Counted from the stretch's first letter, positions 27,273 to 44,776 are shown. The stretch is DNA of 64,000 nucleotides from Minisyncoccota bacterium (GCA_003173865.1 PJMF01000010.1:19088-83087), one strand, 5' to 3'. The notes: generated by a model not told the origin, from the sequence alone. A program made the numbers and translations.

Positions 27273-27295
27273 ACGTGTGGGAGTTTATCCGAACA
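27273..27295 (+). repeat. Dispersed repeat copy C
   Basis: CACGTGTGGGAGTTTATCCGAAC. Confidence 0.55.
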
Positions 27296-28464: not shown

Positions 28465-28500
28465 TGAGGAAAATTATGAGGAAAAAAATTAAAATAGTGC

Positions 28501-28836: not shown

Positions 28837-28910
28837 AGAGCGAGGGTTTGAAGTCTTTGAGAAAAAGCCGACAACTGAGGTTGAGAAAGTGATCTTATTA
28901 TATTTTTCAT

Positions 28911-28943
28911 TAGCTCCCCGTGTGGGACTTTATCCGAACGATA
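28911..28943 (+). repeat. Dispersed repeat copy D (full length)
   Basis: TAGCTCCCCGTGTGGGACTTTATCCGAACGATA. Confidence 0.6.
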
Positions 28944-28984: not shown

Positions 28985-30832
28985 CTAAATTGCGTTGTAC
29001 TCCTTAAGGGTGAATTCCAATGCCTCTTCGTGTCTATTTTTAACATTATCTTCTAAATCACCCATCCCAACTCTTCTTTGTCTTCTCATATAATCTGCTC
29101 TTAACCGCTCTTTTACGGTCTCTCTGTTGTCTAGATCTGGAGAAAAATTTAACTTCATGAAATGACAACCAATGCAGGTATAGACCCTATCTTCGCCAGT
29201 CATATCTGCTTCATTTTGTGCTTCACAAAGGGCAAAGGCCAAAGGCCTATTTTCTCCTATACACTGTTTAAAAAAAGACGACGCAACATTTATTGCATCC
29301 TCATTCCCAACTTTTTTGACGGTACCGACGTAAAAATTAGCTCCCGCAAAAATAAAATTAACGGACATCGTGTAGTTAGAAACGCAAGCATTATTGAAAA
29401 CAAAAGGAGCAGATGATGGATCTGAGATACCGTGAATCATAGGAATGTATGGACCCAAAGGATCTTGAGTAATGATGACGTTGCAAAATCTCATTTGCTC
29501 ATTTTCCTTTTCTTCTAAAACCTCCCATTTCTCTCTTTCTATTGCCATAAAATCTTCAACTACTGTTTTGGATGATCCTTTTTTATACTCTTTCTTATAC
29601 CAAGGATTGCCATCAAGCTCCACAAACTCATAAAAGGTTTTTACATTAACAATTCGATTAGTGCCTTCGCCTTTATTTGTTATGTCGAAGGAATCAAGGG
29701 TATCAATAGTAATGACATGGTCACAACTCTCCTTGTCGAGAAATTTAATTTTGAAACGATTGCCTTTTGGAAAACCTGCATGGCTACAAACAAACAATAA
29801 ATCATATGGGTAATACTGGATACTTTGATCCAAATCAAAGTTCCTAAACTGATTTTCTCTGAGTTCTTTAACAAATACATTTTTTTGTGCTAATAAATCA
29901 CAGATACCATCTGTTTCTGAATTTTTAAAAAAACCTGTGTCGACAAGTAGAGCTGAGTTTACTTGAATGTATGGTTCTGCCACAGAGGAAGCTATCAAAT
30001 AAGATGGTAGCGATTTATTGTATATGTGAGTTGAAGGAATTTTGGGGAAAAGGTAACCATACGTGAAGTCGTTAGTAAAAAAAGTGATCAATTTGTATTG
30101 TTCCACATTTTTTATGTCTAACTCAAAATCCGATTTCACTTCTCCGAAAATTTGTCTTGCAAGTTCACCTCCTCTATCTTCATGCACCGATTCTCCAATC
30201 ATGTCATAAATTTCCCTTGAGCTATATTTACTTTTACTCACAAAAAATCGGATATCAGCTTTTACAGAAAAAGCATAATTGGCTAAAATCACAGGATTAT
30301 GGAGGTCCGACGAATCTGAGGCTAACAGGTGTTCTTGTTCTACCGACTGAACAATTCGATAATCTGCATCCGATTTGATTATTAATTTTAATTTTCTCCG
30401 TTTTGCTTCTAATAACGCAAACGTGACTTTTTCTCTATCTGGAGGACATTCAATTACTCCTTCAAATTTTATTCCGAAATTGGACGCTAATGTGTTAATC
30501 TCGGTTTTTTTGTTGATGTATATATATCTATCTTCTCTTAAACCAAGGTGATCCTTAATTAGATTCATCATCTTTGAAGGTACATCAGCAAAAATAATTT
30601 TTTCTGCCTTTACTCTCGCAAGAACATTATTTAATTTAACGAATTCGTTGCGCCAGTATTTATGAAGCGACCGTGGAAGTTCAAGTACAGCAAAGTACGT
30701 ATTCTCATCGTTAAAACATGACGATATTTGGGCACTTAATACAAAGTTCCCACTAATGCACACGACTCTTTTTTCTATTTTAGGTGGGAAGCTTAATGAG
30801 TCATTTATTGGATCAGGCATGGGTAAATTCAA
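28985..30832 (-). CDS. Hypothetical 615-aa protein (orphan)
   Basis: Long ORF; no motif identifiable by eye. Confidence 0.4.
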   Translation of the reverse strand: MNLPMPDPINDSLSFPPKIEKRVVCISGNFVLSAQISSCFNDENTYFAVLELPRSLHKYWRNEFVKLNNVLARVKAEKIIFADVPSKMMNLIKDHLGLREDRYIYINKKTEINTLASNFGIKFEGVIECPPDREKVTFALLEAKRRKLKLIIKSDADYRIVQSVEQEHLLASDSSDLHNPVILANYAFSVKADIRFFVSKSKYSSREIYDMIGESVHEDRGGELARQIFGEVKSDFELDIKNVEQYKLITFFTNDFTYGYLFPKIPSTHIYNKSLPSYLIASSVAEPYIQVNSALLVDTGFFKNSETDGICDLLAQKNVFVKELRENQFRNFDLDQSIQYYPYDLLFVCSHAGFPKGNRFKIKFLDKESCDHVITIDTLDSFDITNKGEGTNRIVNVKTFYEFVELDGNPWYKKEYKKGSSKTVVEDFMAIEREKWEVLEEKENEQMRFCNVIITQDPLGPYIPMIHGISDPSSAPFVFNNACVSNYTMSVNFIFAGANFYVGTVKKVGNEDAINVASSFFKQCIGENRPLAFALCEAQNEADMTGEDRVYTCIGCHFMKLNFSPDLDNRETVKERLRADYMRRQRRVGMGDLEDNVKNRHEEALEFTLKEYNAI

Positions 30833-31446
30833 GAATTACTATAAATGTCGAGAAAATCAAAAATTGTTTGAGGGAATAAAAGCGAAAGGCCAATCCCCAA
30901 AATATGTTCAGGTGTATACACGAGCGTGTTGTGAGCTCCTTCAAGTGGTACAGTCTCTGGTGGTACAGCTTCATCGCCGAATGCTGGCCTAATGGTCATC
31001 AACCGAGCTCGATCCTGTTTGGTTAAGAGGTGTTCGCTGGCTTCAAACTGCAAAACTGACTGTTTGAAAGCAGGACTTTTTTGACTCACACTCTCAAGAG
31101 ACCGAAACGTTCTATTTGGGTTACCTCTTCGCAAACGGCCACAATTATTTACTGCTTTTTCAATAACATCCTGTCGCTCTCGAAATACATTAAATGCAAA
31201 ACTTCCACCTGCACTTGAGCCAATAACATAAACCTTTCCACGTTTGTGCAACTCGTCGATAAGTACCAGCATCCGTTCAAGCTTGGGCTCAAAATCTTCA
31301 CCGTCATACCAGCCAACCCTAGATATGTGTGTTTCCACACCCATTTTCTTCCAACCTTTAGTTGCCCAAGTCATAGCTTCAATGTTATCGCCGAGTCCAG
31401 GAATAAAAATGATTTGTGGTTTTGCCTCAGGAGATGTCATCTTCAT
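30829..31446 (-). CDS. Alpha/beta hydrolase (GxSxG)
   Basis: IIFIPGLGDN ... VYVIGSSAGG nucleophile elbow. Confidence 0.5.
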   Translation of the reverse strand: MKMTSPEAKPQIIFIPGLGDNIEAMTWATKGWKKMGVETHISRVGWYDGEDFEPKLERMLVLIDELHKRGKVYVIGSSAGGSFAFNVFRERQDVIEKAVNNCGRLRRGNPNRTFRSLESVSQKSPAFKQSVLQFEASEHLLTKQDRARLMTIRPAFGDEAVPPETVPLEGAHNTLVYTPEHILGIGLSLLFPQTIFDFLDIYSNS

Positions 31447-31795
31447 CCTTAAGGTGCTTTCGCGCTTTTTTAACTTCTCTATGCATAGATTGCATTAAAT
31501 CTGCATAAGACTCTGGTGTCATCCCTTTTGGAGGGTTTTCAATCAGACTTCTTTCAAGTTCGAGAAAAGCTTCGAGCATTCGATCAGGAGTGACATCAGG
31601 GCTAAAAGTTGCATGTGCGCCCATTTGCCCATTTTCATCAATACTTGTGTAGTCAATGTGGTAGCCGATTCCTGGAAAAGTGTCAGTATCTATTTCTATT
31701 GTCCCTCCACTTCCAACTGGCCGAGTTTTTGGTTTTTGTTGTTCCTCTTGTCCTTGGCCTCGTCTTTTTCTCCACCATCGCTCAAGTCTTTGCAT
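31427..31795 (-). CDS. Hypothetical basic protein
   Basis: ORF; overlaps the neighbouring stop by 20 nt. Confidence 0.3.
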   Translation of the reverse strand: MQRLERWWRKRRGQGQEEQQKPKTRPVGSGGTIEIDTDTFPGIGYHIDYTSIDENGQMGAHATFSPDVTPDRMLEAFLELERSLIENPPKGMTPESYADLMQSMHREVKKARKHLKDEDDIS

Positions 31796-31813
31796 ATTTA
31801 CCTTTCTGAAATC

Positions 31814-32671
31814 TCACCACTTATAAGCCTTGTGAAGGATTGCTTCCCAAATCGAATCGGGAGTAATTTTCCTCACAAATGTGTATAGTTTCGTATCAAT
31901 GCCGATTTTATACCTGATGCGTGTTTTGGGCAGATTTGCTATCTCAAATAATTTATTGACTACGTGCTGGGGATCAACAATCCTTTTGATTATGGGGTTG
32001 TCAATTACTTTTTCTTTCGTGAGCGTTTCACGGTCTAATGGATTACGTAAACCAGAATAAGCAGTTTTGCCAGACTTATACCCCTTTAATACTTTGCTGT
32101 GATTTTGAAAATCAGTTAAAAATGCTCCTGGTTCAACCACCGTAACATCTACTCCAAATGGTTTGACTTCAAAGCGGAGCACCTCAGACATCGTTTCTAA
32201 AGCAAACTTAGAAGATGAATACACACCATATAATCCAAAGGATAGTAAACCGTTTAACGAAGTTACATTGATAATCCTTCCTGACTTTCTTTGCCTCATA
32301 GAGGGTAAAACTGCTTGAATCATTCTCAACGCACCAAAAATATTCACGTCATACTGTTCTTGAATTTGCTCAATATCAAACTCTTCTAACGGACCGAAGT
32401 AGCCGAAGCCTGCATTGTTAATCAGTACGTCAATATGGCCATTAGCTTTGAGAATTTTCTGCACTTCGAAATCAATTTCATTTTGTTTGGTTACATCAAT
32501 CTTCACTACTTCTAAATCTAGCTTTTCCTTGTCGGCAGTTGATTGCAATTTTTTTGATCGTTCATCCAAACTTTTTACCGATGCAAAAACCTTCCAGCCA
32601 TTACGAGCAAATTTCAAAGCAGCGAGATAACCAAAGCCAGATGAGCAACCTGTAATGAGAATAATTTTCAT
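31814..32671 (-). CDS. Short-chain dehydrogenase/reductase
   Basis: TGCSSGFG Rossmann motif, NNAG, catalytic YSSSK. Confidence 0.8.
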   Translation of the reverse strand: MKIILITGCSSGFGYLAALKFARNGWKVFASVKSLDERSKKLQSTADKEKLDLEVVKIDVTKQNEIDFEVQKILKANGHIDVLINNAGFGYFGPLEEFDIEQIQEQYDVNIFGALRMIQAVLPSMRQRKSGRIINVTSLNGLLSFGLYGVYSSSKFALETMSEVLRFEVKPFGVDVTVVEPGAFLTDFQNHSKVLKGYKSGKTAYSGLRNPLDRETLTKEKVIDNPIIKRIVDPQHVVNKLFEIANLPKTRIRYKIGIDTKLYTFVRKITPDSIWEAILHKAYKW

Positions 32672-33102
32672 AAATTTAAGGTATAGATAAGGTAGTTATC
32701 TTTATCCTTCGCATTTTGAATAAAACCGACTGAACTAAGTGCTTTTTGACTTGCGATATTTTTTTCTTCCGCACCTGCTTCCAGCTGTTTAATTTCCAAG
32801 CTTTTAGCCTTCTCAATGAGAGTTAGAAGGAGTTGCTTACCTTTGCCTTTACCTCTTTCATCGGGTGAAATATAAAAAGAGAAATAGCCAACCCCATAAG
32901 GTCCCTTTTCAAGGTCTGTAAAACCAATTGCATTGTCATCTTCGTAAACGATCCATCCATACCGAGACTCGGGATTAAGTAATTTCAGCCAAGAAGCTAG
33001 ATGTGTATATGAACTCAATTCTTTTTGTCCTTCAATATCATCCTCAAACCATTGGGTAATGAGTTCCTGATCTGAAACTGAAACTGGAACGAAATGAATC
33101 AT
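32668..33102 (-). CDS. GNAT acetyltransferase
   Basis: RGKGKGKQLLLTLIEKAKSLEI; paralogous to the N-terminal domain of the 5506..6447 protein. Confidence 0.65.
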   Translation of the reverse strand: MIHFVPVSVSDQELITQWFEDDIEGQKELSSYTHLASWLKLLNPESRYGWIVYEDDNAIGFTDLEKGPYGVGYFSFYISPDERGKGKGKQLLLTLIEKAKSLEIKQLEAGAEEKNIASQKALSSVGFIQNAKDKDNYLIYTLNL

Positions 33103-33124
33103 AGCTTCAATCTCTACTTTTTAA

Positions 33125-33664
33125 CTATTTTAAAAGTCCCTCAATCTTCAATAGAGCATATGCACTAATACTCGGGGCATCCTTAATTTCTCCTTGTACA
33201 ATCATTTTTTCCAGATCTTCAACTGTAAATTTAGACATAGTCATTCCCATCTCACTTATTTCTAAATTCTGTGAACCTTTTTCAAAATCAGTTGCAAGAA
33301 AAATATGGAAACCTTGGTTACAGTACCCATACGCTTCATAGAAAAAACCAATCTCCTGCCAACTCTTAGCTCTTAGACCTGCTTCTTCTAATAATTCTTT
33401 TTGAGCAACTTCTTTTGCACTCGTCTCTGGCTTTTCTTCATAAGAACCCTGAGGAAATTCCCAAAATGATTTGCCAACTGGGTAACGGAACTGTCGTACT
33501 AAGTAAAAATGAGTTCCATCGAATGGAATAATTAGTGCAAAGTCGGGTTTTTCAACAATCCCGTAAATACCTTTCTTCCCGTTTGCAAACTCCACCTCGT
33601 CTTCGTAAACAGACATCCATTTATTCTTATACTTTGGAATTCGCGATAATTGCTTGATGCTCAT
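33125..33664 (-). CDS. NUDIX hydrolase
   Basis: Nudix box GSYEEKPETSAKEVAQKELLEEAGL. Confidence 0.75.
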   Translation of the reverse strand: MSIKQLSRIPKYKNKWMSVYEDEVEFANGKKGIYGIVEKPDFALIIPFDGTHFYLVRQFRYPVGKSFWEFPQGSYEEKPETSAKEVAQKELLEEAGLRAKSWQEIGFFYEAYGYCNQGFHIFLATDFEKGSQNLEISEMGMTMSKFTVEDLEKMIVQGEIKDAPSISAYALLKIEGLLK

Positions 33665-33674
33665 ATATTTCTTT

Positions 33675-34595
33675 CTACTTTTTCATTTCTTCATATGAAC
33701 CATAAATTAGCTGAGGATTTCGCAACTCAGTCACTTCAACTTCATCTCCAATTTGGATTACTCCCTCTCCATGTGGATTGATGTTCTCGCCAAAAATGGG
33801 ATTCAGTTCATCATGAATGTTCTTCCATACGCGGTACTTCATCATTGTGCGATTTGGTTCAGCTGTTTTCTCACCGGTCTCAGGATTAATCTGCGGAATA
33901 GGGCATCGTTCACAGGGTTTTGGTTGATCACAGGGAATGCCAGCAACATTGAGCGCAAAAATCGCATGGACAAATTGAGGTTCAAAACCCTCTGCAACAA
34001 ATTGCGGTCGAAAACGCTCCCAACCTAATGAAACTCCTGCTCTTTGCTCTAATTCTGTAACATCTTCTTGTGGAAACCAATGAATTGGATAGCCGTCTTG
34101 AAACCGCGCTGTATTATCATTCTTGAGATAATTTTGACGAGTTGGACGATGAAATGCTTCACCAACTGCCCGCACCAATCGTACCGGCTTTCCTAAATGA
34201 TCACTAAACCAGGTTGCGAGTTGGTCGTCTTGATCAACCGCTTGGCAAACATCATCCCAAACTTTCACTGGAATAACTTTACCGCTAATGTTGTCTAAAG
34301 GCACAGTGATTGAATCTTTATCACCCCAACTTACACTTAGTATTCCATTCTCAAATCTAGGCAGGATTTGGGTCATAATATTCATACCTCGCTGTCTTTG
34401 TTGAACAAATTCATGCACTCCATCGGCGTTTACTTCTGCGCTGACTACCATAAAGTCATGATCTTTGAGTCCACCTTCTACTGTTTCTAGTCCTGCTTTA
34501 GTAAGTCGTGCCTGAGTAAGCTCTAAGCGATGTGTGCTTTTAATTGGATACAAAGCAAGCTGAGAAATTCGACCTTTTGCTTCTACTGATGGCAT
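33675..34595 (-). CDS. MOSC-domain protein
   Basis: Length and conserved C-terminal Cys region (CERCPIP) are typical of MOSC beta-barrel proteins. Confidence 0.6.
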   Translation of the reverse strand: MPSVEAKGRISQLALYPIKSTHRLELTQARLTKAGLETVEGGLKDHDFMVVSAEVNADGVHEFVQQRQRGMNIMTQILPRFENGILSVSWGDKDSITVPLDNISGKVIPVKVWDDVCQAVDQDDQLATWFSDHLGKPVRLVRAVGEAFHRPTRQNYLKNDNTARFQDGYPIHWFPQEDVTELEQRAGVSLGWERFRPQFVAEGFEPQFVHAIFALNVAGIPCDQPKPCERCPIPQINPETGEKTAEPNRTMMKYRVWKNIHDELNPIFGENINPHGEGVIQIGDEVEVTELRNPQLIYGSYEEMKK

Positions 34596-35209
34596 AGTTG
34601 TTTCACCTTTCTTGGATTTCTAAATTTCTTTCCATGACCTGGAATTACCCAATCTGCTTTCTCCAACACTAATTTTCGAGAGGCAATTTGTGCATCTCGA
34701 TCAGTTGCAAATGGGTCCTGAAGCTCAAGTAAATCTGCTTCTGTTTCCGATTTCTGTTTTCCATCTTCCCACCAAAACACATCCTGAGCTATGCAAACCC
34801 AACCATCATCCGTATTTACTAACAATGAAGTATGTTCAGGACTGTGGCCGGGGGTTGGCAAGATTTCAATATGGGTTCCTGGAATAAACTCTTTATGGAA
34901 ATACTCCTCATCGCCTTTCCAAAAGACACCACCATCGTAAATGTGCGTATCAGGAAAAAGACGAATGTTCAAAAAATGATCAGGGTGATAATGAGTTAAG
35001 TAAATGAAATCAATATCTTGAGGTTTGAGCTTCAAACTTTTCAGGGAAGCCAATAACTTCTCTTTATTGGTTCCAGGGTCAACTAATATTTTCTTTCCAT
35101 CAGCCTCAATAAGAGTAGTTGTGGGACTCGCAACGAATGATCCATCTTCTTTTGGGTACGCATATCCTTCAATTAAAATGTGAACTTTATCCATAGCTGG
35201 CTTCTCCAA
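34583..35209 (-). CDS. MBL-fold metallo-hydrolase
   Basis: THYHPDH metal-binding motif. Confidence 0.75.
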   Translation of the reverse strand: MEKPAMDKVHILIEGYAYPKEDGSFVASPTTTLIEADGKKILVDPGTNKEKLLASLKSLKLKPQDIDFIYLTHYHPDHFLNIRLFPDTHIYDGGVFWKGDEEYFHKEFIPGTHIEILPTPGHSPEHTSLLVNTDDGWVCIAQDVFWWEDGKQKSETEADLLELQDPFATDRDAQIASRKLVLEKADWVIPGHGKKFRNPRKVKQLCHQ

Positions 35210-35370
35210 GGTTCTTTATATGGCAATTTTACACTCAAGTGTATCAAACCAAAAGTGACCGGAATTGATGAAGAAAAGAAATGCTTCCAATGCTTGCATT
35301 GCCACCACACCAGATACATAGATCTCATCAAGATATGGAAGCATGGCAGCAATGGAAGCAAAAATGAGAA

Positions 35371-36030
35371 TTATTTGCCTAAGTCTATTTGTACCCCGTC
35401 CGTAAACAATCCACCTTGGGCGAGTAGTTTGAGCCCAGTTGCGTCTTTTGGTACATCAAACACAATTTTGCCGGTGACCGACAAACTTGGTTGAACTTGC
35501 TGCAAGAAGAAGGAAGTACCACCATTCGTTTCTTCCATAGCCAGCTGTCCATCGGTCGAATAGTCGAACTTTCTTCCCTGGCTATCAACGACATGGAAAT
35601 CGGAAGCATTAATTGTCTTGGTATCTTTGCCATTATTCTGGATCTTCACCGTTAAAACATAAAATATGCCTTGAGCTGTTTTGGACGTAAAACTGTTCCC
35701 TATGGTTGATGCCGTACTCACCGACTGAACCGTAAATCCAAGATCATCATCAGTAGTGGTGTCTCCCACCTTTGCCTGTTTTACTTGCGGTTGATCGGAA
35801 GTTGAACCAACAGCTGCCGCTGTATTCCCACTCGTTGAATTAGATGATGTGCTACTCGAACTTGATTTGCTACCTCCGGCTACTCCTACCAGGATAAAGA
35901 AGACGGTGACCGCCAAGATACCAGTCATGATCTTGTGCTTCATAAACCAGTTTCGCTGGTCAGTTTGACAATTCGGACACTTCGTCGCTTTATCATCAAT
36001 TTCTTTTCGGCAACTTTTACACATTTTCAT
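35371..36030 (-). CDS. Zinc-ribbon membrane protein with DUF4352-like extracellular domain
   Basis: CKSC..CPNC zinc ribbon, TM helix, Ser-rich linker, beta-rich C-terminal domain. Confidence 0.45.
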   Translation of the reverse strand: MKMCKSCRKEIDDKATKCPNCQTDQRNWFMKHKIMTGILAVTVFFILVGVAGGSKSSSSSTSSNSTSGNTAAAVGSTSDQPQVKQAKVGDTTTDDDLGFTVQSVSTASTIGNSFTSKTAQGIFYVLTVKIQNNGKDTKTINASDFHVVDSQGRKFDYSTDGQLAMEETNGGTSFFLQQVQPSLSVTGKIVFDVPKDATGLKLLAQGGLFTDGVQIDLGK

Positions 36031-36125
36031 ATATTTTTCCTTTTCTATCGAGCGCCCAAATATTGTACAGTATAATTTCCATATATGGAATGGTTAAATA
36101 TGGCAAGTCCTCAAATAATGAGAGG

Positions 36126-36365
36126 ATGCCGAGTAGATACCAACAAAAGAACGAATACCAGAGAGAACGGGAACAGTTGGGACAAACCATCAAGAGACTT
36201 CGTAATGAACGCAAAATGACCCAAGAGGATCTTGCCGATGAAGCGGACATTAACGTTTCGTATTTGGCCAAAATTGAGAATGGGTACGTGAATACCTCGA
36301 TTCGCTACCTAATTAAGATCTCCCGCGGTCTGAAAGCCAAAGTCCAAGAATTGTTTGAGTTTTAA
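36126..36365 (+). CDS. XRE-family HTH transcriptional regulator
   Basis: QLGQTIKRLRNERKMTQEDLADEADINVSYLAKIENG. Start chosen at M22 of the track ORF (RBS GAGAGG). Confidence 0.6.
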   Translation: MPSRYQQKNEYQREREQLGQTIKRLRNERKMTQEDLADEADINVSYLAKIENGYVNTSIRYLIKISRGLKAKVQELFEF

Positions 36366-36469
36366 GTCTCCTTATTTTGGTGTTGCAAACCCCAACCTTT
36401 CCAGCTTTACAGTTCTGGTTTTTTTCGTATTATGAGGATAAATGAAAATTATCATAAGAATCAATTAAT

Positions 36470-37876
36470 ATGCAAAATTCAACTTTGCAGTCAAATGACG
36501 AAGTTACATTACGTTTAAAAGCCTCCCTAGTTAGAAAAAGTGAAGGTCTGAGTCATCTTAACAATCCAAGAGATTTTTTTAGTGAACTTGCTAATATTTA
36601 TAAATTTATTTCCTCAAGAAACGAGCTGGTGATTATCTTAGAGGAAATGCTCGCGGATTACCAAAAAGAGTTTGTGGAAACGGAGAAGTTAAGACTACAA
36701 GTAGAAAAGGAATTAAATCAATCTTTGGATGAAATTAAAGACATTGCAATCAAAAATAATTTAGTTACTAAGTCCCAGTGGAATGAAGTAAAAGCTTATT
36801 ATGAGAATCACATGGCAAATCCTGTCATACCTGACTTATTGAAAAATCAAGATTCGCCTTCATCGTTAGGAATTACCATTGGTGAATACTATTCCGTGGC
36901 GTATGGATCTACTCAAGCTATGTCTGAAGACGTTACCAGGGAAAGAATGCTACTTGTATATTTAGGTCGTATCGTAGCAACAATTTTTAGCAAAAATCCA
37001 GAATTAGTAAAAAGGTACGTTATCCTTTTCAAGGATGATAAAGGTCAAGAAGTTATTCAGGATTATAAAATTTCGACAACCTATCGGGAATTCGAAAATA
37101 AAAGAGCTCTTGCTACAGTGAAATCGCAAATTTCCCCCTGGTTTGCCTTTTCAAGGCTACAATTAGTACCCCTTTGTATGTATGACTATGTAGAATATAT
37201 GGCTAGATTAAAGGAGCAAAATGACATAGTTAGGTCAATGAATCTCAATTTGCTCGTAGGAGAAATGAGAAATATTTTGGGGAATAAACAGACTTATTCT
37301 AACCAACCTACCATCTTCGTTGTTCAAGATTATAAAAATTATTTCTTAAGGGTTATAGATCACATTTTGGATTACCTAGACTTTACCTCTGAGGAAACTA
37401 AAGAGAAGATAACTCCTTTACAGATTACTCCGAGTCAATCACAAAACATAAAATCCCCTAGCCTTCCTCAATTTCTACCTCAAGACGATCTTGATTCTCT
37501 TTTTTTAGCTAAATTTAGTTTTAATCCAGAGCCCCAAAAAGGCAAATACTTTCTGCGTTACGGTTCTCATATACCAGCAACATTTGATATGAATTCTGAT
37601 TTGGGAAATGTCTGTTATGCGCTTGCCAAAAAAATAGGTGGGTGGGTGCATGCACAGGAAATCGTTTCTCAGGCATGGCCGAAGATAAATTATGAAGCGG
37701 AAACATCGGAGAAGGGCAAAAAGCTTCACAAAAAAGTTCGAGATACAATAAGTGACATACGTATAAAAAAATTAGTACCACATGGGTTGGCTGATGCTAT
37801 TGTTATCCAATCTGGATACGATCTTATCGGTGATAAGGGCAGTAATTGGTTCAGATTTATGCTTATTGCTCCATAG
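36470..37876 (+). CDS. Hypothetical 468-aa element protein
   Basis: ORF only. Confidence 0.35.
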   Translation: MQNSTLQSNDEVTLRLKASLVRKSEGLSHLNNPRDFFSELANIYKFISSRNELVIILEEMLADYQKEFVETEKLRLQVEKELNQSLDEIKDIAIKNNLVTKSQWNEVKAYYENHMANPVIPDLLKNQDSPSSLGITIGEYYSVAYGSTQAMSEDVTRERMLLVYLGRIVATIFSKNPELVKRYVILFKDDKGQEVIQDYKISTTYREFENKRALATVKSQISPWFAFSRLQLVPLCMYDYVEYMARLKEQNDIVRSMNLNLLVGEMRNILGNKQTYSNQPTIFVVQDYKNYFLRVIDHILDYLDFTSEETKEKITPLQITPSQSQNIKSPSLPQFLPQDDLDSLFLAKFSFNPEPQKGKYFLRYGSHIPATFDMNSDLGNVCYALAKKIGGWVHAQEIVSQAWPKINYEAETSEKGKKLHKKVRDTISDIRIKKLVPHGLADAIVIQSGYDLIGDKGSNWFRFMLIAP

Positions 37877-37880
37877 GTTT

Positions 37881-37928
37881 CCGTTACTTCTGTTAGTCTC
37901 CGTTACTTTTTTCCGTCACCTCCGTCAC
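37881..37928 (+). repeat. Iteron-like direct repeats (4 x CCGT[T/C]AC)
   Basis: CCGTTACT at 37881 and 37900; CCGTCAC at 37913 and 37922. Confidence 0.5.
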
Positions 37929-37963
37929 TTTTTCAGAATAAAGAGCCGATCAATACTAGGCTC

Positions 37964-38212
37964 ATGTCAAATTATTCTGTAAATGATTATTTCAACACTT
38001 TCGATTTAGGCCTTAGCGCAGCTTTAGTCTCCCTTGGCTTCCCCATTGATCATCTCGATAAGTCAAATGCTCGTAAAGTCGAGTTTGTATTTCTGCGCGT
38101 CGATGGCTTAGACCAGGCTATCCAATCGTATTGGTCTAATTCTCTTTCTGTCTCTGCCTTGTCGTATTTCAATGCCACAAAAATGATCAAGAACAGGATC
38201 TATAGCGAGTAG
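37964..38212 (+). CDS. Small hypothetical protein
   Basis: ORF only. Confidence 0.3.
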   Translation: MSNYSVNDYFNTFDLGLSAALVSLGFPIDHLDKSNARKVEFVFLRVDGLDQAIQSYWSNSLSVSALSYFNATKMIKNRIYSE

Positions 38213-38231
38213 CAAAAGTTGAAAGTAAAAA

Positions 38232-38423
38232 ATGAAAATTACAAAAGATTACCTTCCAGAAACTCCACCACTAGAACCAATCTCAGGGTCTTTTTATTCT
38301 TTAGCACAACTTCTCTCGATTTGGTGGGATAAACACAATCTTGATGAAAAGTTAGCAACTCACACGATGGATGAAGTTCTTCAAGAAATGATTAGAGAGA
38401 GAAATAAGGAGGAAAAAATGTAA
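38232..38423 (+). CDS. Small hypothetical protein
   Basis: ORF only. Confidence 0.3.
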   Translation: MKITKDYLPETPPLEPISGSFYSLAQLLSIWWDKHNLDEKLATHTMDEVLQEMIRERNKEEKM

Positions 38424-38471
38424 AACAAAATACTCCACCAAAAAAAATACTTAACAATCAAAGGAGCCAAC

Positions 38472-38858
38472 ATGGCAAACAACATAACACTAACAGTCAA
38501 AGAATCGGCAATGCCGGAGCCAATCCCAGTTGGGGTATATCCAGCAAAGCTCACCGATATTGAAAAAGGTGAAGGTGAATTCGGAGTTTACTTAAAATTG
38601 AAATTCACGATCACCGATGGCGAGCATAAGGACACTGAGCGATCGACGATCGCCAAGCTGACCTTAACCAAAGGCAGTAAAAAGAATTCAAAGCTGTACG
38701 ACATTGTTACAGCACTCTCAGGCAAGGCTCCTGAGGCAGAAAAAGAAATCAGCTTCAACAGCCTACTGAACAAAGAATGTCAAATCTTGGTGAAAGACAA
38801 ACCTGGAGACAAAGAAGGCTGGCAAATCATTTCTGAGGTGATGCCAGCCAACAAATAA
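38472..38858 (+). CDS. Hypothetical 128-aa protein
   Basis: ORF with RBS AAGGAG. Confidence 0.35.
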   Translation: MANNITLTVKESAMPEPIPVGVYPAKLTDIEKGEGEFGVYLKLKFTITDGEHKDTERSTIAKLTLTKGSKKNSKLYDIVTALSGKAPEAEKEISFNSLLNKECQILVKDKPGDKEGWQIISEVMPANK

Positions 38859-38861
38859 AAA

Positions 38862-41225
38862 GTGAAAACAACGGAGGGCGGGTATCTGCTCGCCCTCCGC
38901 AGATATATGACTACTGTATCAAACAAAATACCATCAAACAATCTTGAGTGGCAAGAGCTCGGACAAGCCTATCTTGACCTTGGCTGGTCAATTATTCCAG
39001 TCGGCTCTGACAAAAAACCACTGGTAAAGTGGAAAGAATACCAAGATCGTAAACCTACCGTAGATGAACTCAAGGAGTGGTGCGAAAAGAGTAACTTATC
39101 TGGTTTTGCAATCGTGACGGGTAAAATCTCGGGTGTAGTTGTGTTAGACCTTGATCAAGGATCGAAGTTTGACACATCTGTACTCACTCCTACGGTTCAT
39201 TCGCAAACGGGATCAGGTGGTCACCATTATTTTTTCAAGGCTTCTGTTGAAATAGAGCTTGGCAATGCCACTGGCTTCATCGAAAAAACTGATTTTCGTG
39301 GCGAGGGCGGTTATGCAATCTTGCCCCCCTCAAAACATCCCAGTGGCAAGCAGTATTTTTGGCTGGAAAACCCTATCGATACCACATTAGCAGACTTGCC
39401 TGCCTCTCTGATCGAGCAATTGACTAAAGTACCCAAAAAAGAAAGCCTCACCGCACAAGTAAAAGAAGAGATCAACATTTTTGAAGGTGTGGGTGAATCA
39501 AAACGCAATGACTCAGCAGCCAAAGTCGTGGGTTTCTTGATGAAGTATGTGCCTCAAGATCAATGGGAAGCAGTGGTATGGCATTTACTCAAGGGCTGGA
39601 ACCGTTTAAACCAACCACCATTATCTGAAACCGAACTTCGTTCCGTGTATGAATCTATCGCAGAAAGAGCCATTTTTGACAACCAAGGGAGTGAAAAACC
39701 TAATCAGGCGCAAATTATTGTAGGCATGGTGCTCGATTCTCCGATCAAACTTTTTACCAACCAGTTCCATGAAGCCGTTTTGACATTGCCAGATTCATCA
39801 TTTTTAACTTGCAAAATTGATTCTGAAATGACGAGGCATTTACTCTTCAAAATGTTCTGGGATTCGGAGGGCAAGCCTCCCAGTGCTGAGGGAGTCAACA
39901 ATGCAATCAAAACTTTGCAGGGTATTGCCGTTTTTGATCAACCTCAAATTGAGGTATTTAATCGAGTTGGTCGAAAAGGTAACACTGTGTACTACGACAT
40001 TGGCGATGGCACTCATATTGTAAAAATTAGCCCCGATGGCTGGACGCTTGAAGCTGAGTCACCCATTTATTTCCGTCGTTTTTCTCATCAAAAGAAACAA
40101 GTACTGCCACAACGCGGTGGAAACCTTATCGAGCTTTTTAAATTCATCAATGTTCAACAAGACCCCCAAAAGCTACTTGTGCTGACGTTTCTGGTCGTGA
40201 GCTTCATTCCCGACATTCCCAGAGCAATGCTTATTCTTCATGGAGACCAAGGCTCTGCCAAATCGACACTCCTTCGTTTATTACGCGAACTTATTGACCC
40301 AAGTGAGGTGGCTCTCCTTACCCCACCAGATTCCATTCGCGAATTGGTCCAGTTTGCCAGTCATCATTACGCTATTTTTTTGGACAATCTCTCTGAGATC
40401 GCACCCAATTTTTCAGATGCAATGTGTCGCTTAATCACTGGCGATGGATTTACCAAACGACAACTATTTAGTGACGATGAGGACGTTCTATACGCCTATA
40501 AAAGGGTCGTTGGTATTTGTGGTATCAATCAGGTAGCTACCAAACCAGATTTGCTTGACCGAAGCATTATTGTTCCCCTTGAGCGCATTCCTGATGGTAT
40601 GCGCGAAGAAGAAAAACAACTTGAAGCTGAATTCGAACAAATTAAACCATACCTACTGGGCTCTCTATTTGACGCTATCTCTACCACACTTCGCCTTGCC
40701 CCAACTTTGGAGCTAACCTCCAAACCTCGTATGGCTGATTACTTCAAATACGCCACGGCAGCAGCGAAGCATTTCAACTTTACTGAAATTCAACTCGCAG
40801 ACGCATTCAATCAAAATGTGAAGCAACAAAACGAAGAAGCCATCGATTCATCACCCGTCGCCCAAACTCTGATTGAGTTCATGGCAAACCAGTCCACCTG
40901 GCAAGGCAAGAGTTCTGAACTTTACGACAAACTTGAAGACATCGCTGACAAAATTAAAATCAAAAAAGGCTTTCCTAAGGCACCCAGTTGGCTGTGGCGG
41001 AAAATCAAAGACATTCGCCCTAACCTCATGGCTTGTGGTATTTCGATCAACAAAGAAAAGCAGATTGAAGGGACATTCATTGTTATCGAGAAAAATGCTG
41101 CCACTGCTTCCAATGCCACCATAACACCAACGCAGACCGAATCAAGTCATGCAAGCAATGGAAGCACTGCAAGCACAGTTGAGGATTTATCCGAGGATGA
41201 AACGATGAAGTTGCTGGGCGCATGA
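38862..41225 (+). CDS. Bifunctional primase-polymerase (Prim-Pol) fused to a P-loop helicase-like domain
   Basis: N-terminal GWSIIPVGSDKKPLVKWKEY...GFAIVTGKISGVVVLDLD matches the Prim-Pol signature. Walker A HGDQGSAKST; Walker B-like AIFLDNLSE. Confidence 0.7.
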   Translation: MKTTEGGYLLALRRYMTTVSNKIPSNNLEWQELGQAYLDLGWSIIPVGSDKKPLVKWKEYQDRKPTVDELKEWCEKSNLSGFAIVTGKISGVVVLDLDQGSKFDTSVLTPTVHSQTGSGGHHYFFKASVEIELGNATGFIEKTDFRGEGGYAILPPSKHPSGKQYFWLENPIDTTLADLPASLIEQLTKVPKKESLTAQVKEEINIFEGVGESKRNDSAAKVVGFLMKYVPQDQWEAVVWHLLKGWNRLNQPPLSETELRSVYESIAERAIFDNQGSEKPNQAQIIVGMVLDSPIKLFTNQFHEAVLTLPDSSFLTCKIDSEMTRHLLFKMFWDSEGKPPSAEGVNNAIKTLQGIAVFDQPQIEVFNRVGRKGNTVYYDIGDGTHIVKISPDGWTLEAESPIYFRRFSHQKKQVLPQRGGNLIELFKFINVQQDPQKLLVLTFLVVSFIPDIPRAMLILHGDQGSAKSTLLRLLRELIDPSEVALLTPPDSIRELVQFASHHYAIFLDNLSEIAPNFSDAMCRLITGDGFTKRQLFSDDEDVLYAYKRVVGICGINQVATKPDLLDRSIIVPLERIPDGMREEEKQLEAEFEQIKPYLLGSLFDAISTTLRLAPTLELTSKPRMADYFKYATAAAKHFNFTEIQLADAFNQNVKQQNEEAIDSSPVAQTLIEFMANQSTWQGKSSELYDKLEDIADKIKIKKGFPKAPSWLWRKIKDIRPNLMACGISINKEKQIEGTFIVIEKNAATASNATITPTQTESSHASNGSTASTVEDLSEDETMKLLGA

Positions 41226-41268
41226 ATGCCACCCCACAAGCGTTGCTAATGAATCAGGAGAAAAAAAT

Positions 41269-41652
41269 ATGCAGTGTACTTATGTCAAAGCTAATAACGA
41301 ACAATGCCAAGCTAATGCCATGAAGGGCGCGGAATATTGTTTTACACATAACCCGCAAACCAGAGAACAACACGCGGCCGCAGTCCTTGCTGGTGGCAAA
41401 AACTCATCGCGAAAAGATGTGATCGAGCTTGAGCCACTGCAACTTCACAATCCTGATAATGCGATCGATCTCTTGGAGCAAACCATCAATGGAGTCCGAG
41501 ATGGGAGTATCCCACCGAATATCGCAAATACTATTGGTTACTTAGTTGGGCATCTATTAAAAGCAATTGAGGCTGCTGATCTCGATAAACGGCTTGAGTC
41601 CATTGAGCGGGTCATCTTTGAACGAAAAACTGTGGCAAAGAGGTCCAAATGA
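41269..41652 (+). CDS. Zinc-ribbon-containing hypothetical protein
   Basis: CTYVKANNEQCQ...YCFTHN Cys/His cluster. Confidence 0.3.
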   Translation: MQCTYVKANNEQCQANAMKGAEYCFTHNPQTREQHAAAVLAGGKNSSRKDVIELEPLQLHNPDNAIDLLEQTINGVRDGSIPPNIANTIGYLVGHLLKAIEAADLDKRLESIERVIFERKTVAKRSK

Positions 41653-42941
41653 AACAATTTCCAATCAATACCATTAGCCAGGTATTAACGGCAAAAGAGC
41701 GAGCCAAAATGGTCGCCAACCTCTTCATAGAAGAAAGTGAAACGAAAGTTGATCGTAAGGGCGAAGTTGAAACGATCAAAGCTGCTATCCCAGATAGCCA
41801 AGTCAGTGAGTACAACTTTTACATGGATCTTATTTACTCGCTACAAGTCGGCATAGATCTCGATTTACAAACGCTGTACTACCAATTAGCACTCTGCGCT
41901 GCTCAATTGCAAGGTGTCTATCGAATTTTGCACATGGGTATTGTGGCTGACATCTTACTGTTTCAGTTACGTTGGTTTCCTACCATCATGACTGAAAATC
42001 AGTTTCAAAAACTCTATCAAGAACTTCGCCAAGAACAGTTGGCAGCAATATTTAGCATCGATACTTTGGCTGAACACGAAGCATTAACTATTTTCCGAAA
42101 ACAAGAGAAGTACAAAGATTGGGATTCCTATCAAATGGAGTGTGCTACTCAAGAGGAAACGTTTGAGGATAAAGAGCTTTGGTTGACGACACTCCAAAAT
42201 CAAAAAGACAAAATTGAGCATGCAATTGTCGATGGTTCACTTATGGAAGCTATCGTGACTACCGGTGACGGATACTACAGTACCGAAAACGACATCGGAA
42301 AACGCGGCATTACTGCATCAAGTTGGTATCAGTATCAAGGAAAAGAAAACCAAGATTTTAACAGCTACATTGATGAGGCCAGGCATTTGGTTCACTTCCA
42401 TAAGAACGCCGTAGCAATTGACTACTCCCCATTCGTAGATGATGAAGAAGACCATGATCGAAATAAGCAAAGAACTATGGAAATTGTCGAACAGATGGCA
42501 GTCATCAAACGAAAATACACCGATAAGTATGATGCACTTCATTTAACAGTTGATTCCAGTGTAATTGAACAAATTCGAGACATTTCCCAAACAATCAATG
42601 TGATTTACGCGAGAGTTCGTGCCTACATGAATATAACGGTTCAAATTGAAAACACTTATTTTGACGGTCAGGAAGTTGTCTCTCGCAAACTCTGGTCAGG
42701 CACAAAAGCGAAAGACGCGTATGAACAAGTTAAGCTCTCCTATCAAGAAATGATCAAGGAAATTCTTGAGTATTTTGGCAAGATGTTTTCTGAAAAGGTA
42801 AGTTTTGAAAATCCTGAAATTGCCGACATCTTTGAGCATTCAACTGGTGAATACCAAAAAAACTTTGATGAAACTTTAGATAGCTTGATGGAAAGCGCCA
42901 AGAAAAGGAGTGGTTTCCGTCCAAGATATTTACCAAGTTGA
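41649..42941 (+). CDS. Hypothetical 430-aa element protein
   Basis: ORF; 4-nt overlap with the upstream gene. Confidence 0.35.
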   Translation: MKQFPINTISQVLTAKERAKMVANLFIEESETKVDRKGEVETIKAAIPDSQVSEYNFYMDLIYSLQVGIDLDLQTLYYQLALCAAQLQGVYRILHMGIVADILLFQLRWFPTIMTENQFQKLYQELRQEQLAAIFSIDTLAEHEALTIFRKQEKYKDWDSYQMECATQEETFEDKELWLTTLQNQKDKIEHAIVDGSLMEAIVTTGDGYYSTENDIGKRGITASSWYQYQGKENQDFNSYIDEARHLVHFHKNAVAIDYSPFVDDEEDHDRNKQRTMEIVEQMAVIKRKYTDKYDALHLTVDSSVIEQIRDISQTINVIYARVRAYMNITVQIENTYFDGQEVVSRKLWSGTKAKDAYEQVKLSYQEMIKEILEYFGKMFSEKVSFENPEIADIFEHSTGEYQKNFDETLDSLMESAKKRSGFRPRYLPS

Positions 42942-42976
42942 CATATATGGCAATTGATCGAAAATAATAGGAGAAG

Positions 42977-44527
42977 GTGGCAAAGATGTATCAGCAACTG
43001 AATGGCTCTGACGACTACGCTAGTGTCAAAAACTGCCTACTCTATGCCCGTGTGAGCACGGATCGCCAAGTACGTGAGGGTCATTCTTTTGAAGACCAAA
43101 TCGAGCGATTAAGTAAGTTCGCCCGAGATCGAAACTGGCATATTATCGATGTGTATAAAGATGGGGGTAAAAGTGGTGGCTCAACTACTGGCAGACCAGA
43201 GTTTAACCGCATGCTTGAACGATGTGCCAGTGATCCAGAAGTTCATGCCGTTTTGCTCGAAGAAACTGACCGCTTCGCCCGCAATGCTCAGGATCATTTA
43301 GCCGTCAAATCATTTCTCAAAAAACATAACGTACTCTTGATAGCAACCGAGCAACCCAACTTCGGTGATGACCCAGTCGGAAAGTTTGTCGACTTAATCA
43401 TGGCTGGAGCCAACCAACTACAACGCGAAATAACTGGTCAAAAAACCAAACGCACAATGGTCTCACTTGCTGAGAAAGGTATCCAACCTGGCCCTGCCAT
43501 TATTGGGTATCGTAACTCTTATAAAAAGGGTGAGCCTTGGTCGATTGATCAAGAACGTGAGTACTTTGTCAAAGAAGTTTTTCGCCGTTACCACACTGCG
43601 ATGTACTCCATTTATCGATTAGAAGATGAATTGTTCAATGAAGGGTTTCGCACTCCAAAAAGCTGCCGTGTTCGAGCTAACGCCATTGCGCGAATGTTGG
43701 TCGATGTCCGTTATGCTGGGAAAGTGCTGTACGACGGAAAGACCTATGATGGTCTTCACCCTTGCATCGTCACCATGGAAGATATACAAAAATCAAAGGA
43801 CATTATGCAAAAACACAATAAAGGTGCAGACCGCACTCGCAAACACAACTGGTTTTTGGCTGGCCTGGCATATTGCAAAACATGCGGCACATTGATGTCT
43901 GGCGAGCAACATATCAAAGAGACTGGTCAAATCAATTTGTATTACCGGTGTCTTGGTCAAAAGAGCTATGGCAAAAGCTGCACAGAACCATATGCCATCA
44001 TGGATGACATTCACGATCAACTGGAAACGTGGATTAAAGGTTTGAAATTTGAAGAAGGTTTCTACGATGGACTGCGCCAAGAGCTATATGGCTTAATGCA
44101 AAGCCAAGGCTCAGATGTCCCGAGCCAAATACGTACACTCAAAAAACGGAAAATGGTAATTGAGAAAAAGATGGATGCGCTCGAAGATCAATTATTTGGC
44201 GAGATTGTTTCTAAAGAGCGCATTGAAAAGAAATATGCGCCACTTCGTAAAGAGTTAGAAAAGGTCGAGTCACAGATTGCAGCACTGAGTAAACCATCAG
44301 CGAACTTAGATGAAAAGAAAATTGAAAAGATCATCGACTTTTTGAAACGTTTACCCGAGCTCTATAAAGCTTTCACCAAACCAGAACGAAAACTGTTCTT
44401 ACACTGGCTCGTCAAAAATATCTGGATACAAGGCAAAAAAATCGTCGATGTGAGTTACACCGAAGGCTTCCAAGCCTTAATCGACCGTGATTTGGTTCGG
44501 ATAAGCAACACGTGGCTCCTCGGCTAG
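42977..44527 (+). CDS. Large serine recombinase/integrase
   Basis: Resolvase N-terminus LLYARVSTDRQ with catalytic Ser. Recombinase domain and Cys cluster CKTCG...C. The stop lies within the tRNA-Asn 3' end. Confidence 0.8.
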   Translation: MAKMYQQLNGSDDYASVKNCLLYARVSTDRQVREGHSFEDQIERLSKFARDRNWHIIDVYKDGGKSGGSTTGRPEFNRMLERCASDPEVHAVLLEETDRFARNAQDHLAVKSFLKKHNVLLIATEQPNFGDDPVGKFVDLIMAGANQLQREITGQKTKRTMVSLAEKGIQPGPAIIGYRNSYKKGEPWSIDQEREYFVKEVFRRYHTAMYSIYRLEDELFNEGFRTPKSCRVRANAIARMLVDVRYAGKVLYDGKTYDGLHPCIVTMEDIQKSKDIMQKHNKGADRTRKHNWFLAGLAYCKTCGTLMSGEQHIKETGQINLYYRCLGQKSYGKSCTEPYAIMDDIHDQLETWIKGLKFEEGFYDGLRQELYGLMQSQGSDVPSQIRTLKKRKMVIEKKMDALEDQLFGEIVSKERIEKKYAPLRKELEKVESQIAALSKPSANLDEKKIEKIIDFLKRLPELYKAFTKPERKLFLHWLVKNIWIQGKKIVDVSYTEGFQALIDRDLVRISNTWLLG

Positions 44528-44776
44528 GATTCGAACCTAGAACCATCTCCTTACAAAGGTCCCTTAGTTACCTAAAGGTTTGGACTATCTTATCCGCCAA
44601 ACTGTGTTTGGTGGCTGGGTATATAGTCTCTACACATTTACCCCGCCGCGGCGGGGATTTAGCTCGGGATTTTCCTCTGAAGAGGAGTTCCCCGAATTAG
44701 CCCAGTTTTCCACTATCTATTACTAGACAGCGCTGCCATGTAACAGGGAGCCGCGCTACCATTGCGCCACCGAGGA
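44513..44776 (-). tRNA. tRNA-Asn (GUU) interrupted in the anticodon loop by a group I intron
   Basis: 5' exon UCCUCGG-UG-GCGC-AAUGGUA-GCGC-G-GCUCC-CUGU. 3' exon UAAGGAGA-UGGUU-CUAGG-UUCGAAU-CCUAG-CCGAGGA-G-CCA. Spliced anticodon loop is CUGUUAA. Confidence 0.7.
44554..44742 (-). ncRNA. Group I intron (about 189 nt, no ORF)
   Basis: P-like AAUUCGGGGAA, Q-like AAUCCCCGCC, R-like GUAGAGACUAUA, S-like AAGAUAGUCC. 5' exon ends in U. omega-G precedes the 3' exon. IGS GCAG pairs with exon CUGU. Confidence 0.65.

Follow-up and report, generated by a model that had tools for sequence, protein, structure and literature searches.

Serine integrases are the textbook 'non-tRNA' integrases. The large serine recombinases (LSRs) of phages such as phiC31, Bxb1, A118/LI and SPbeta (SprA) have three domains and recombine an attP of ∼47-50 bp, which carries inverted outer motifs, with a shorter attB in which the motif lies ∼5 bp nearer to the centre. 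Long direct repeats are not left behind, and int adjoins attP. In the SSV1-type (fusellovirus) integrase, attP lies within the int open reading frame (ORF), so that integration alters the ORF. That serine integrases may also use tRNA genes came from the TIGER survey of genomic islands, which counted serine integrases at t(m)RNA genes (14/297), a use that 'has not been reported previously' and that needs proof (Mageeney et al. 2020; PMC7192596). Here, we have analysed a stretch of 64,000 nucleotides (the window) from a Minisyncoccota bacterium (GCA_003173865.1 PJMF01000010.1:19088-83087), in which an LSR gene runs into the 3' end of a tRNA-Asn gene. Our results suggest that the window carries one integrated element at ∼28.91-44.52 kb, made up of variable leftward cargo, a conserved backbone and the LSR at its right end. 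We put the probability of this reading at about 0.68.

The LSR (516 aa) is encoded on the plus strand at 42977..44527, and an annotated homologue (P0001) starts at 42986. Here and below, L-numbers and P-numbers label the related loci, contigs and homologues that were compared with the window. ORFs were searched against Pfam, PHROGs and NCBIfam, RNA genes were sought with Rfam and ARAGORN, and defence genes with PADLOC. The domain architecture that an earlier note on this DNA had proposed is confirmed by Pfam: a resolvase domain (PF00239, 2.8e-26) covers residues 21-168 and is followed by the first DNA-binding domain (DBD1; Recombinase PF07508, 7.7e-6) and a zinc-ribbon DBD2 (Zn_ribbon_recom PF13408, 3e-7), each over its curated cut-off. 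The protein matches PHROG 95 'integrase' at 2e-80, and its resolvase domain matches the PDB structures 3guv and 3bvp. The motif YARVSTDRQ includes the presumed nucleophilic serine, S27, and all of 22 compared sequences have Y23, R25, V26, S27, R30 and Q31. Residues ∼380-460, a candidate for the coiled-coil insertion of DBD2, look heptad-rich by eye, with a weak EAD9 match as the only one in that region. Judged by these matches, the recombinase is an LSR with resolvase, DBD1 and zinc-ribbon DBD2 domains.

The TAG stop codon of the LSR (44525-44527) lies beyond the CCA end of the minus-strand tRNA-Asn (44513-44515), so that the two genes overlap by exactly 15 nt, as the earlier note had stated. 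It had left open that the contact was coincidental. We found LSRs 57-86% identical to this one, in loci that share its gene order, that also read into the tRNA-Asn 3' end irrespective of the intron in that gene (L001, L002-5, L086, L089, L095, L098, L100); eight such relatives are distinct. Two unrelated LSR lineages of 20-24% identity (L007, L041) also end in the tRNA-Asn 3' end, and two more LSRs (L009, L012) are located downstream of the gene, at distances of up to a few hundred bases. Relatives and unrelated LSRs share the contact, the DNA of the final LSR codons is invariant and the site geometry fits the attP/attB rules (both described below). The contact is thus a property of the enzyme family and not a coincidence.

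The overlap could instead be fixed and vertically inherited, the work of a domesticated recombinase, and many relatives do have an LSR at the same place beside RpoD and tRNA-Asn. However, the flanks to the left differ in each genome while the tRNA side is constant, and the closest relative (L006; RpoD 90% identical) lacks the element altogether. L013, L016, L027 and others also lack it, and L001, L002 and L100 carry it, so the comparison with relatives that the earlier note had proposed found both occupied and unoccupied sites. At the same nucleotide position, L007 has a different LSR element, and L011 retains a remnant of only 13 LSR codons. Moreover, in about half of the family loci the LSR 3' end is joined to non-tRNA sequence, several contigs of metagenome-assembled genomes (MAGs) break at tRNA-Asn, and unrelated LSRs sit at the same site. 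Vertical inheritance is hardly credible against these observations, and the tRNA-Asn site is clearly a hot spot. The MAG contigs that end at tRNA-Asn or only a few bases away from it (L017, L019, L022, L030) suggest strain-level heterogeneity that breaks assemblies there.

That the end of the LSR gene is constrained as DNA is seen in its codons. All LSRs of the family terminate in ...D(L/M)VRIxxWL. The codons for V-R-I are GTT CGG ATA in 16/16 LSR genes, an invariance that is partly by construction because these genes were located by the GTTCGGATAA 10-mer, and no family locus is without it (16 loci); the codon for the following L is CTC in 14/14, a result independent of the 10-mer search. Of the 64 invariant degenerate residues in the 16 LSR genes, the other 60 use 2-6 codons each. 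After ..WL the tails vary, of the type ..P(R/G)(L/V)DSN.. (e.g. PRVDSNHEP, PGLDSDQR..), which is the in-frame translation of the tRNA T-arm. We considered that integration might swap a conserved, functional LSR tail, and rejected it, as the residues after ..WL are unconserved. A displaced tail coding sequence was looked for and none was found. The tail swap on integration is probably neutral.

The geometry of the attachment sites was reconstructed from an alignment of 16 junctions. In the window, attR (44495..44519, plus strand) consists of a P arm, GTTCGGATAAGCAACACGTG, and the core GCTCC; it falls within the last codons of the LSR (V-R-I-S-N-T-W-L) and shares positions 70-76 with the tRNA. 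In metagenome contigs, the P arm is found in an attP-like site of 47 bp, GTTCGGATAA-N27-TTATCCGAAC, whose core is the tRNA 3' end CGGGGAGCCA in tRNA sense. The junction reads GTTCGGATAAGTGAGACGTG-GCTCC-CCGTGTGGGACTTTATCCGAAC in L102 and GTTCGGATAAGGACTGAAATGTGGTCTTTGCGAGACCTTATCCGAAC in L103/L105, where the LSR is only 38% identical; in L102, L103 and L105 the P-core-P' junctions are 47 bp each with perfect 10-bp inverted ends. Degenerate P-core-P' junctions were found in L087, L093, L094, L096 and L099. From its length and symmetry, the P-core-P' junction can be read as an attP-type site. The proposed B' outer motif is the T-loop of the tRNA, ATTCGAAC, at 44529-44536 on the plus strand. In the tRNA half-site, this motif extends to +21 from the core G; in P', the related ATCCGAAC extends to +26, an offset of 5 bp. 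An outer motif ∼5 bp nearer the centre in attB than in attP is a rule for large serine integrases (bioRxiv 10.1101/2025.01.03.631226), and the B'/P' offset seen here agrees with it exactly. Crossover would take place at tRNA positions 70-72, on the TC or CC of the core. Intergenic copies of GTTCGGATAAA..CACACGGGGAG had been a candidate for a genome-specific promoter or leader motif; this reading was dropped because L102, L103 and L105 carry the same sequence directly abutting LSR 3' ends.

The left boundary, which the earlier note had taken to be unfixable from sequence, could be located by its P' arm. A weight matrix was built from six P' sites of other loci only and scanned over the window. 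Its top outlier, at 32.5 bits against a background maximum of 12.6, is the core GCTCC followed by the P' arm GCTCCCCGTGTGGGACTTTATCCGAAC at 28913..28939 on the plus strand. The 30 nt at 28913-28942 match with 100% identity the P' found after the LSR of L102, an enzyme 82% identical to that of the window. Because 28913 is both the top matrix outlier and identical over 30 nt to the L102 junction, we place attL at ∼28913 and attR at ∼44519. Going leftwards from the LSR, it is the first P' to be encountered, and the left end is thus moved from the 36031 of the earlier note, making a unit of ∼15.6 kb and not 8.5 kb. The element would therefore take in ∼6.3 kb of minus-strand cargo and the DUF4352 gene; the earlier note had counted these genes, the DUF4352 gene and eight cargo genes, as part of the chromosomal neighbourhood. 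Units of more than 10 kb seem to be the norm, since in eight relatives no P' was found within 10 kb upstream of the LSR. That near-identical backbones differ in their minus-strand cargo (see below) also agrees with the larger unit. A repeat search and ungapped scans found no direct repeat of the tRNA 3' end at the left end.

How the element could move is suggested by these sites. The circular form would bear the 47-bp attP: a P arm, GTTCGGATAA..ACGTG, that forms the final eight LSR codons; the core GCTCC, complement of tRNA positions 70-74; and a P' arm ending ..TTATCCGAAC. The end of the recombinase gene would thus double as half of its own recombination site. The attB would be the T-loop and the acceptor 3' strand of tRNA-Asn (B') together with any downstream sequence (B). 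LSR dimers would pair attP with attB and exchange strands in the core near tRNA positions 70-72, and the integrated LSR ORF would continue across the crossover into the tRNA until its first stop codon. The tRNA would be kept intact, and the LSR Trp codon TGG would provide it with an encoded CCA. Once excised, the circle would be replicated by the Prim-Pol/P-loop protein with the iteron-like repeats of the backbone. The domain content, the conserved junctions, the codon freeze, the 5-bp offset and the presence or absence among relatives are seen in the sequences; the exact crossover position, excision, autonomous replication and cell-to-cell transfer are inferred from sequence comparison. The excised circle is predicted to have the attP junction GTTCGGATAAGCAACACGTGGCTCCCCGTGTGGGACTTTATCCGAAC, and the empty site is predicted to read ..CCGAGGAGCTAATGAAAAATAT.., with ..GGTTCGAATCCTAGCCGAGGAGCTAATGAAAAATATAATAAG.. 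as the empty attB for the 15.6-kb unit.

The distribution of the encoded CCA bears on this proposal. tRNA-Asn genes without CCA (ending ..GGAGC|N) and with no LSR P arm adjoining were found in ten loci (L006, L013, L016, L017, L027, L030, L034, L039, L042, L043); the tRNA-Asn of L041, which abuts an unrelated LSR, also lacks it. CCA-encoding tRNA-Asn lies beside an LSR P arm in the window, L001, L002, L007, L012, L086, L089, L095, L098 and L100, and beside an LSR-less P relic in L011 and L021; for further CCA-encoding copies (L009, L019, L022, L024, L033), the link of the adjoining sequence to an LSR is unverified. Because CCA-less copies have no LSR P arm and CCA copies abut a P arm, a P relic or unverified sequence, the encoded CCA is probably supplied by the elements and, in this LSR family, would be the Trp codon TGG. 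The integrated tRNA-Asn has a perfect acceptor stem, and the attP-like site contains the tRNA fragment CGGGGAGCCA.

Whether the cargo belongs to the mobile unit depends on a second boundary. At the nucleotide level, L001 and L002 cease to be homologous to the window exactly at 35216, where a 19-nt motif, TTATATGGCAATTTTACAC (35216-35234), is followed by a hairpin at 35280-35360. The motif is also found in L001 (2596) and L002 (2493), hence conserved in three elements, and backbones that are 89% (P0038), 86% (L001) and 67% (L002) related bear wholly different minus-strand genes at the cargo position. Four P'-led segments without a backbone are already present in the window. All this could mean that only the 9.3-kb backbone (35216-44519) is presently mobile, with the cargo at 28.9-35.2 kb and the P' at 28913 being leftovers of an earlier element, in which case the empty site would have the tRNA end joined to ..AACCTTGGAGAAGCCAGCTATGG.. 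However, the best matrix score at 29.0-36.2 kb is 6.4 bits, neither the consensus pattern nor the weight matrix found a P' near 35216, and no P'-like site was found at the backbone edge in L001, L002, L086, L089 or L100. The boundary motif is also unlike the GTTCGGATAA-type outer motif in the P arm of the same LSR, and the same P' as at 28913 stands beside an 82%-identical LSR. We consider it unlikely that the backbone moves alone, and keep the element of ∼15.6 kb as the preferred reading. An 11-mer of the boundary motif, GGCAATTTTAC, recurs in the opposite orientation at the left edge of a Toprim-type backbone (L089, ∼1940).

The end of homology at 35216 nevertheless weighs against an element of ∼15.6 kb, as does the way in which the LSR genes were located, and several other observations do so too. 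No exact empty site was found for the flank of the window itself, where the 308-aa protein of the neighbouring segment S2 (described below) matches nothing but itself. No circular contig or terminal overlap was found among the family contigs; L096 and L097 overlap linearly. The P-core-P' junctions could be junctions of tandem arrays and not free attP sites, since in L094 the tRNA-Asn, which is CCA-less, lies 5.3 kb beyond one of them. From simple attP x attB integration one would not expect what the window shows, five attL-type junctions with a single attR. The attP has an odd length of 47 bp with its centre of symmetry on the TC or CC of the core, so the central dinucleotide is ambiguous. Finally, the comparison of GC content proposed in the earlier note fails to distinguish the block (backbone 0.414, cargo 0.385, right flank 0.427) and lends no support.

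The backbone runs from the DUF4352 gene to the 430-aa gene before the LSR, and the contiguous plus-strand block, with ORFs from 36063 to 44527, is as the earlier note had described; every sequence feature that it listed was found where it had been placed. The DUF4352 protein (35371..36030, minus strand; PF11611 3e-26, PHROG 806 6e-36) is divergent from the XRE gene, and DUF4352 or Ltp lipoprotein genes occur at the equivalent position in L001, L002 and the P0038 contig. The regulator that had been called an XRE repressor (36063..36365, plus strand) matches HTH_3 at E = 2e-15 and is 83% identical in L001 and L094. It is followed on the same strand by a 468-aa orphan ORF (36470..37876) with no match in Pfam, PHROGs or NCBIfam. 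Its place in L001 and L002 is held by proteins of 348-372 aa without a tblastn match, and the orphan is variable among family members. Four nucleotides beyond its 3' end starts a cluster of four direct, iteron-like CCGT(T/C)AC repeats (37881..37928, plus strand; copies at 37881, 37900, 37913 and 37922), which the earlier note had recognised; of the 16 matches to CCGT(T/C)AC in the whole window, 4 are packed into these 48 nt of intergenic gap. Different, lineage-specific short direct repeats lie at the equivalent position in L002 and L094. Downstream, also on the plus strand, are genes for a DUF5659 protein (37964-38212; PF18903 at 2e-10), a 63-aa protein (38232-38423) and a 128-aa protein (38472-38858) with weak matches to single-stranded DNA-binding (SSB) and replication-initiation families (PHROG 378 'ssDNA binding protein' 1e-4; NF046043 1e-5, below cut-off), whose homologue in L089 has a weak DUF669 match.

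The candidate replicase, a 787-aa protein (38862..41225, plus strand), was correctly called a primase-polymerase in the earlier note: it matches Prim-Pol (5.6e-27) and PriCT_1 (8.5e-6) in Pfam and has a C-terminal P-loop NTPase with the Walker A sequence GDQGSAKST. For the helicase-like module that had been proposed here, Pfam gives matches at the Walker A level only (AAA_16 and similar, E 0.009-0.06, under curated cut-offs). However, over residues 280-755 the protein shares 28-32% identity, with E down to 4e-54, with ATP-binding or 'helicase/primase' proteins from small plasmids and from a Microbacterium phage. Between this gene and the LSR lies a conserved plus-strand gene pair (41269..42941). 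It encodes a Cys/His-rich protein of 127 aa and an orphan of 430 aa that is all-helical, both of them candidate directionality factors. The 430-aa protein has a confident structure model (pLDDT 85) and no fold relative among solved PDB structures, the viral BFVD library being outside the search. The hairpin at 35280-35360, of ∼80 nt and downstream of the DUF4352 gene, has a dG of -37 kcal/mol (z = -5.3) and is conserved in L001; the 3' end of the Prim-Pol gene (41093-41175) contains the sequence of its arm a second time. The hairpin could act as a terminator, or it could be an origin-like structure.

What kind of element these genes make up can be asked of the families that were searched for. 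Searches of the element ORFs in Pfam, PHROGs and NCBIfam found no capsid, terminase, portal or tail family, in agreement with the earlier note, and general scans of the same three libraries found no relaxase, type IV secretion system (T4SS) or coupling-protein family in the ORFs at 28.9-44.5 kb. The virion genes of a prophage and the relaxase or T4SS of an integrative conjugative or mobilizable element (ICE/IME) are thus both absent from the matches. A replication protein (Prim-Pol/PriCT/P-loop) and clustered direct repeats (four CCGTYAC) are both present, with a putative origin or binding function. With the recombinase architecture confirmed and no virion families found, the proposal that the locus is an integrative replicon rather than a prophage is supported. 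From its gene content, the element is best described as an integrative, probably self-replicating, plasmid-like element with an XRE switch and a variable cargo bay.

The same genes have also to be weighed as those of a phage satellite or a defective prophage that needs a helper virus for packaging. Phage-inducible chromosomal island (PICI)-like satellites have the layout seen here, in which <10 kb hold small orphan ORFs together with genes for an integrase, a repressor and a primase-type replicase; DUF4352/Ltp-type genes beside a repressor are in typical prophage 'moron' positions (PHROG 806); and the library scans found no conjugation genes. However, no family for capsid, terminase, portal, tail or the redirection of packaging was matched, and for the 430-aa protein the search of solved PDB structures gave no match to a viral fold. 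In IMG/VR, no relative of the LSR was found and the Prim-Pol domains are only 28% identical. A helper-dependent satellite appears improbable to us, more so than a backbone that moves alone, and the plasmid-like replicon remains our description.

The cargo consists of eight minus-strand genes, encoding proteins of 615 aa (28985-30832), 205 aa with a weak alpha/beta-hydrolase match in Pfam (30829-31446) and 122 aa (31427-31795), followed by members of the families SDR (31814-32671), GNAT (32668-33102), NUDIX (33125-33664), MOSC (33675-34595) and metallo-beta-lactamase (MBL) fold (34583-35209), as matched by Pfam. None of the genes at 28985..35209 has a strong match in PADLOC, where the NUDIX protein scores 3e-4 and the MBL-fold protein ∼7e-6 to LmuA/RTasMBL. 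Elsewhere, the cargo position holds a SAVED-domain gene in L001 (1296-2570), a SMODS-domain gene in L002 (1533-2477), and GNAT, 2-Hacid_dh, hydrolase, cupin and PNPOx genes in P0038. Defence-like cargo is often found beside LSR elements at tRNA-Asn, for instance DruA, NurA and DUF87 genes in L093 (4771-9629), and in L007 (11231-15858) a 1011-aa ORF resembles a restriction-modification enzyme by eye.

The scan with the P' matrix further showed that the window has more such junctions. It has five P' outliers, all intergenic and all on the plus strand, and the next best score anywhere is 12.6 bits. Besides attL, these are the sites at 27268-27294 (23.9 bits), 15658-15684 (24.6 bits), 14227-14253 (18.6 bits) and 12075-12101 (18.0 bits), which head the segments S2 (27268-28912), S3 (15658-27267), S4 (14227-15657) and S5 (12075-14226), respectively. 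These are older segments of the island, and they have neither an LSR nor a P arm. S2 carries two orphans and an odd tRNA-like gene of 106 nt (27468-27573, minus strand; Rfam tRNA 45 bits, overlooked by ARAGORN). Its D arm is class-II-like, its anticodon loop reads GUGACAA (GAC by position), and the variable region has an insertion of ∼35 nt. S3 carries, between two P' sites, a T-box-like leader (26559-26746, minus strand; 43.8 bits, under the Rfam gathering score) directly upstream of a tRNA-His gene (26424-26496, minus strand) and of an apparently complete histidine-biosynthesis operon (e.g. hisG 25520-26602 and hisD 21858-23204). This his operon is unexpected for a genome of the candidate phyla radiation (CPR) and could be acquired cargo. 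The sole gene of S4 (14267-15547, minus strand) encodes an AAA_14/DUF4143 ATPase that matches the candidate defence family PDC-S01 of PADLOC (E = 5e-109), and S5 carries a 523-aa orphan.

Related arrays are found elsewhere. In L087 and L106, a P-core-P' junction is followed by a second X-core-P' junction. Single-gene units between a P relic and a P' lie beside tRNA-Asn in L011 (15040-16200, a 358-aa ORF) and L021 (14670-15340, a 188-aa ORF), where no recombinase gene is present, and these mini-elements may be non-autonomous units moved in trans. For the accumulation of attL-type junctions without attR partners we can only offer as ideas a partial excision at cryptic sites, a decay followed by re-use of the tRNA half-site, or cassettes that move in trans. 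It is conceivable that tRNA-Asn in Microgenomates anchors a serine-recombinase gene-capture system, in which LSR elements with attP in their own 3' codons go through repeated rounds of partial excision or in-trans cassette movement and leave arrays of P'-tagged segments in the same orientation. We hold this idea tentatively, with the odds against it. If it is true, it would give genome-reduced CPR bacteria an integron-like route to metabolism and defence genes; among the P'-tagged segments here are one with a candidate defence ATPase, one with a tRNA-like gene and one with an apparently complete T-box-controlled histidine operon.

The window is part of a bacterial chromosome, with genes for RpoD (45949-47037), GDH (49487-50776) and DnaG (52746-54560), and the homologues of its proteins come from MAGs of Patescibacteria/Microgenomates such as 'Candidatus Woesebacteria' and UBA924. 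The host chromosome is that of a member of the Patescibacteria (Microgenomates/Woesebacteria-like). The tRNA-Asn(GUU) at the right end of the element (44513..44776, minus strand) is overlooked by ARAGORN. The earlier note was right that it contains an intron; this is a bacterial group I intron and not one of archaeal type (Rfam RF00028, 56.5 bits, minus strand), at ∼44554-44742 by reading of the sequence and at 44561-44754 by the Rfam match. As read from the sequence, it sits between U35 and U36, at anticodon position 35/36. Both the class and the position of group I introns in tRNA-Asn have been published for Patescibacteria (PMC13011429). Among relatives at the same locus, the intron is absent in L001, L089, L095 and L100 and of a different size in L002 and L086.

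The mobile elements of CPR bacteria are, to our knowledge, barely known, and the locus suggests how cargo such as small-molecule enzymes, candidate defence genes and perhaps a his operon enters these bacteria. One tRNA end appears to be the point of convergence for a whole LSR family, and possibly for several unrelated lineages. With attP overlapping the coding end of the integrase, the locus would be a compact example of one sequence with two functions, and the reconstructed sites are directly testable in vitro. An enzyme that reads the short, widely conserved sequence of a tRNA T-loop and acceptor could be of interest as a tool for genome engineering.

We would like to point out how the element compares with the systems described so far. 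The intron class of the tRNA and LSR elements as such are already known. In contrast to the phage LSRs, which it shares only ∼25% identity with, the LSR described here would target a tRNA 3' end instead of a protein-coding gene and has its P arm inside its own last codons, in a CPR host and with no virion genes. Like the TIGER islands with serine integrases at t(m)RNA genes (PMC7192596), it is a computational inference of a serine integrase using a tRNA gene; the differences here are a conserved family, a reconstructed attP/attB geometry and a DNA-level constraint on the integrase 3' end. Tyrosine-integrase islands at tRNA genes (P4-like, PICI-like) also insert at the tRNA 3' end, carry a copy of that end which keeps the gene functional, accumulate in tandem at one tRNA and bear variable accessory or defence cargo; their enzyme class and chemistry differ, and the core shared here is only ∼8-10 bp, with no long direct repeat. 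As in SSV1, the attachment site overlaps the reading frame of the integrase itself, but the tyrosine integrase gene of SSV1 is split in two, whereas here only the unconserved residues after ..WL are swapped. The arrays resemble integron cassette arrays in layout only: short segments in the same orientation, each with one site recognised by a recombinase, and single-gene units as in L011 and L021. In place of IntI, a tyrosine recombinase that acts on folded attC, and of attI, they have a serine enzyme and pairs of double-stranded LSR half-sites, with the recombinase lying between the array and the tRNA. What appears unusual on these comparisons is the targeting of a tRNA by a serine integrase, a P arm inside the last integrase codons that is under DNA-level constraint, and arrays of P'-tagged segments in a CPR genome.

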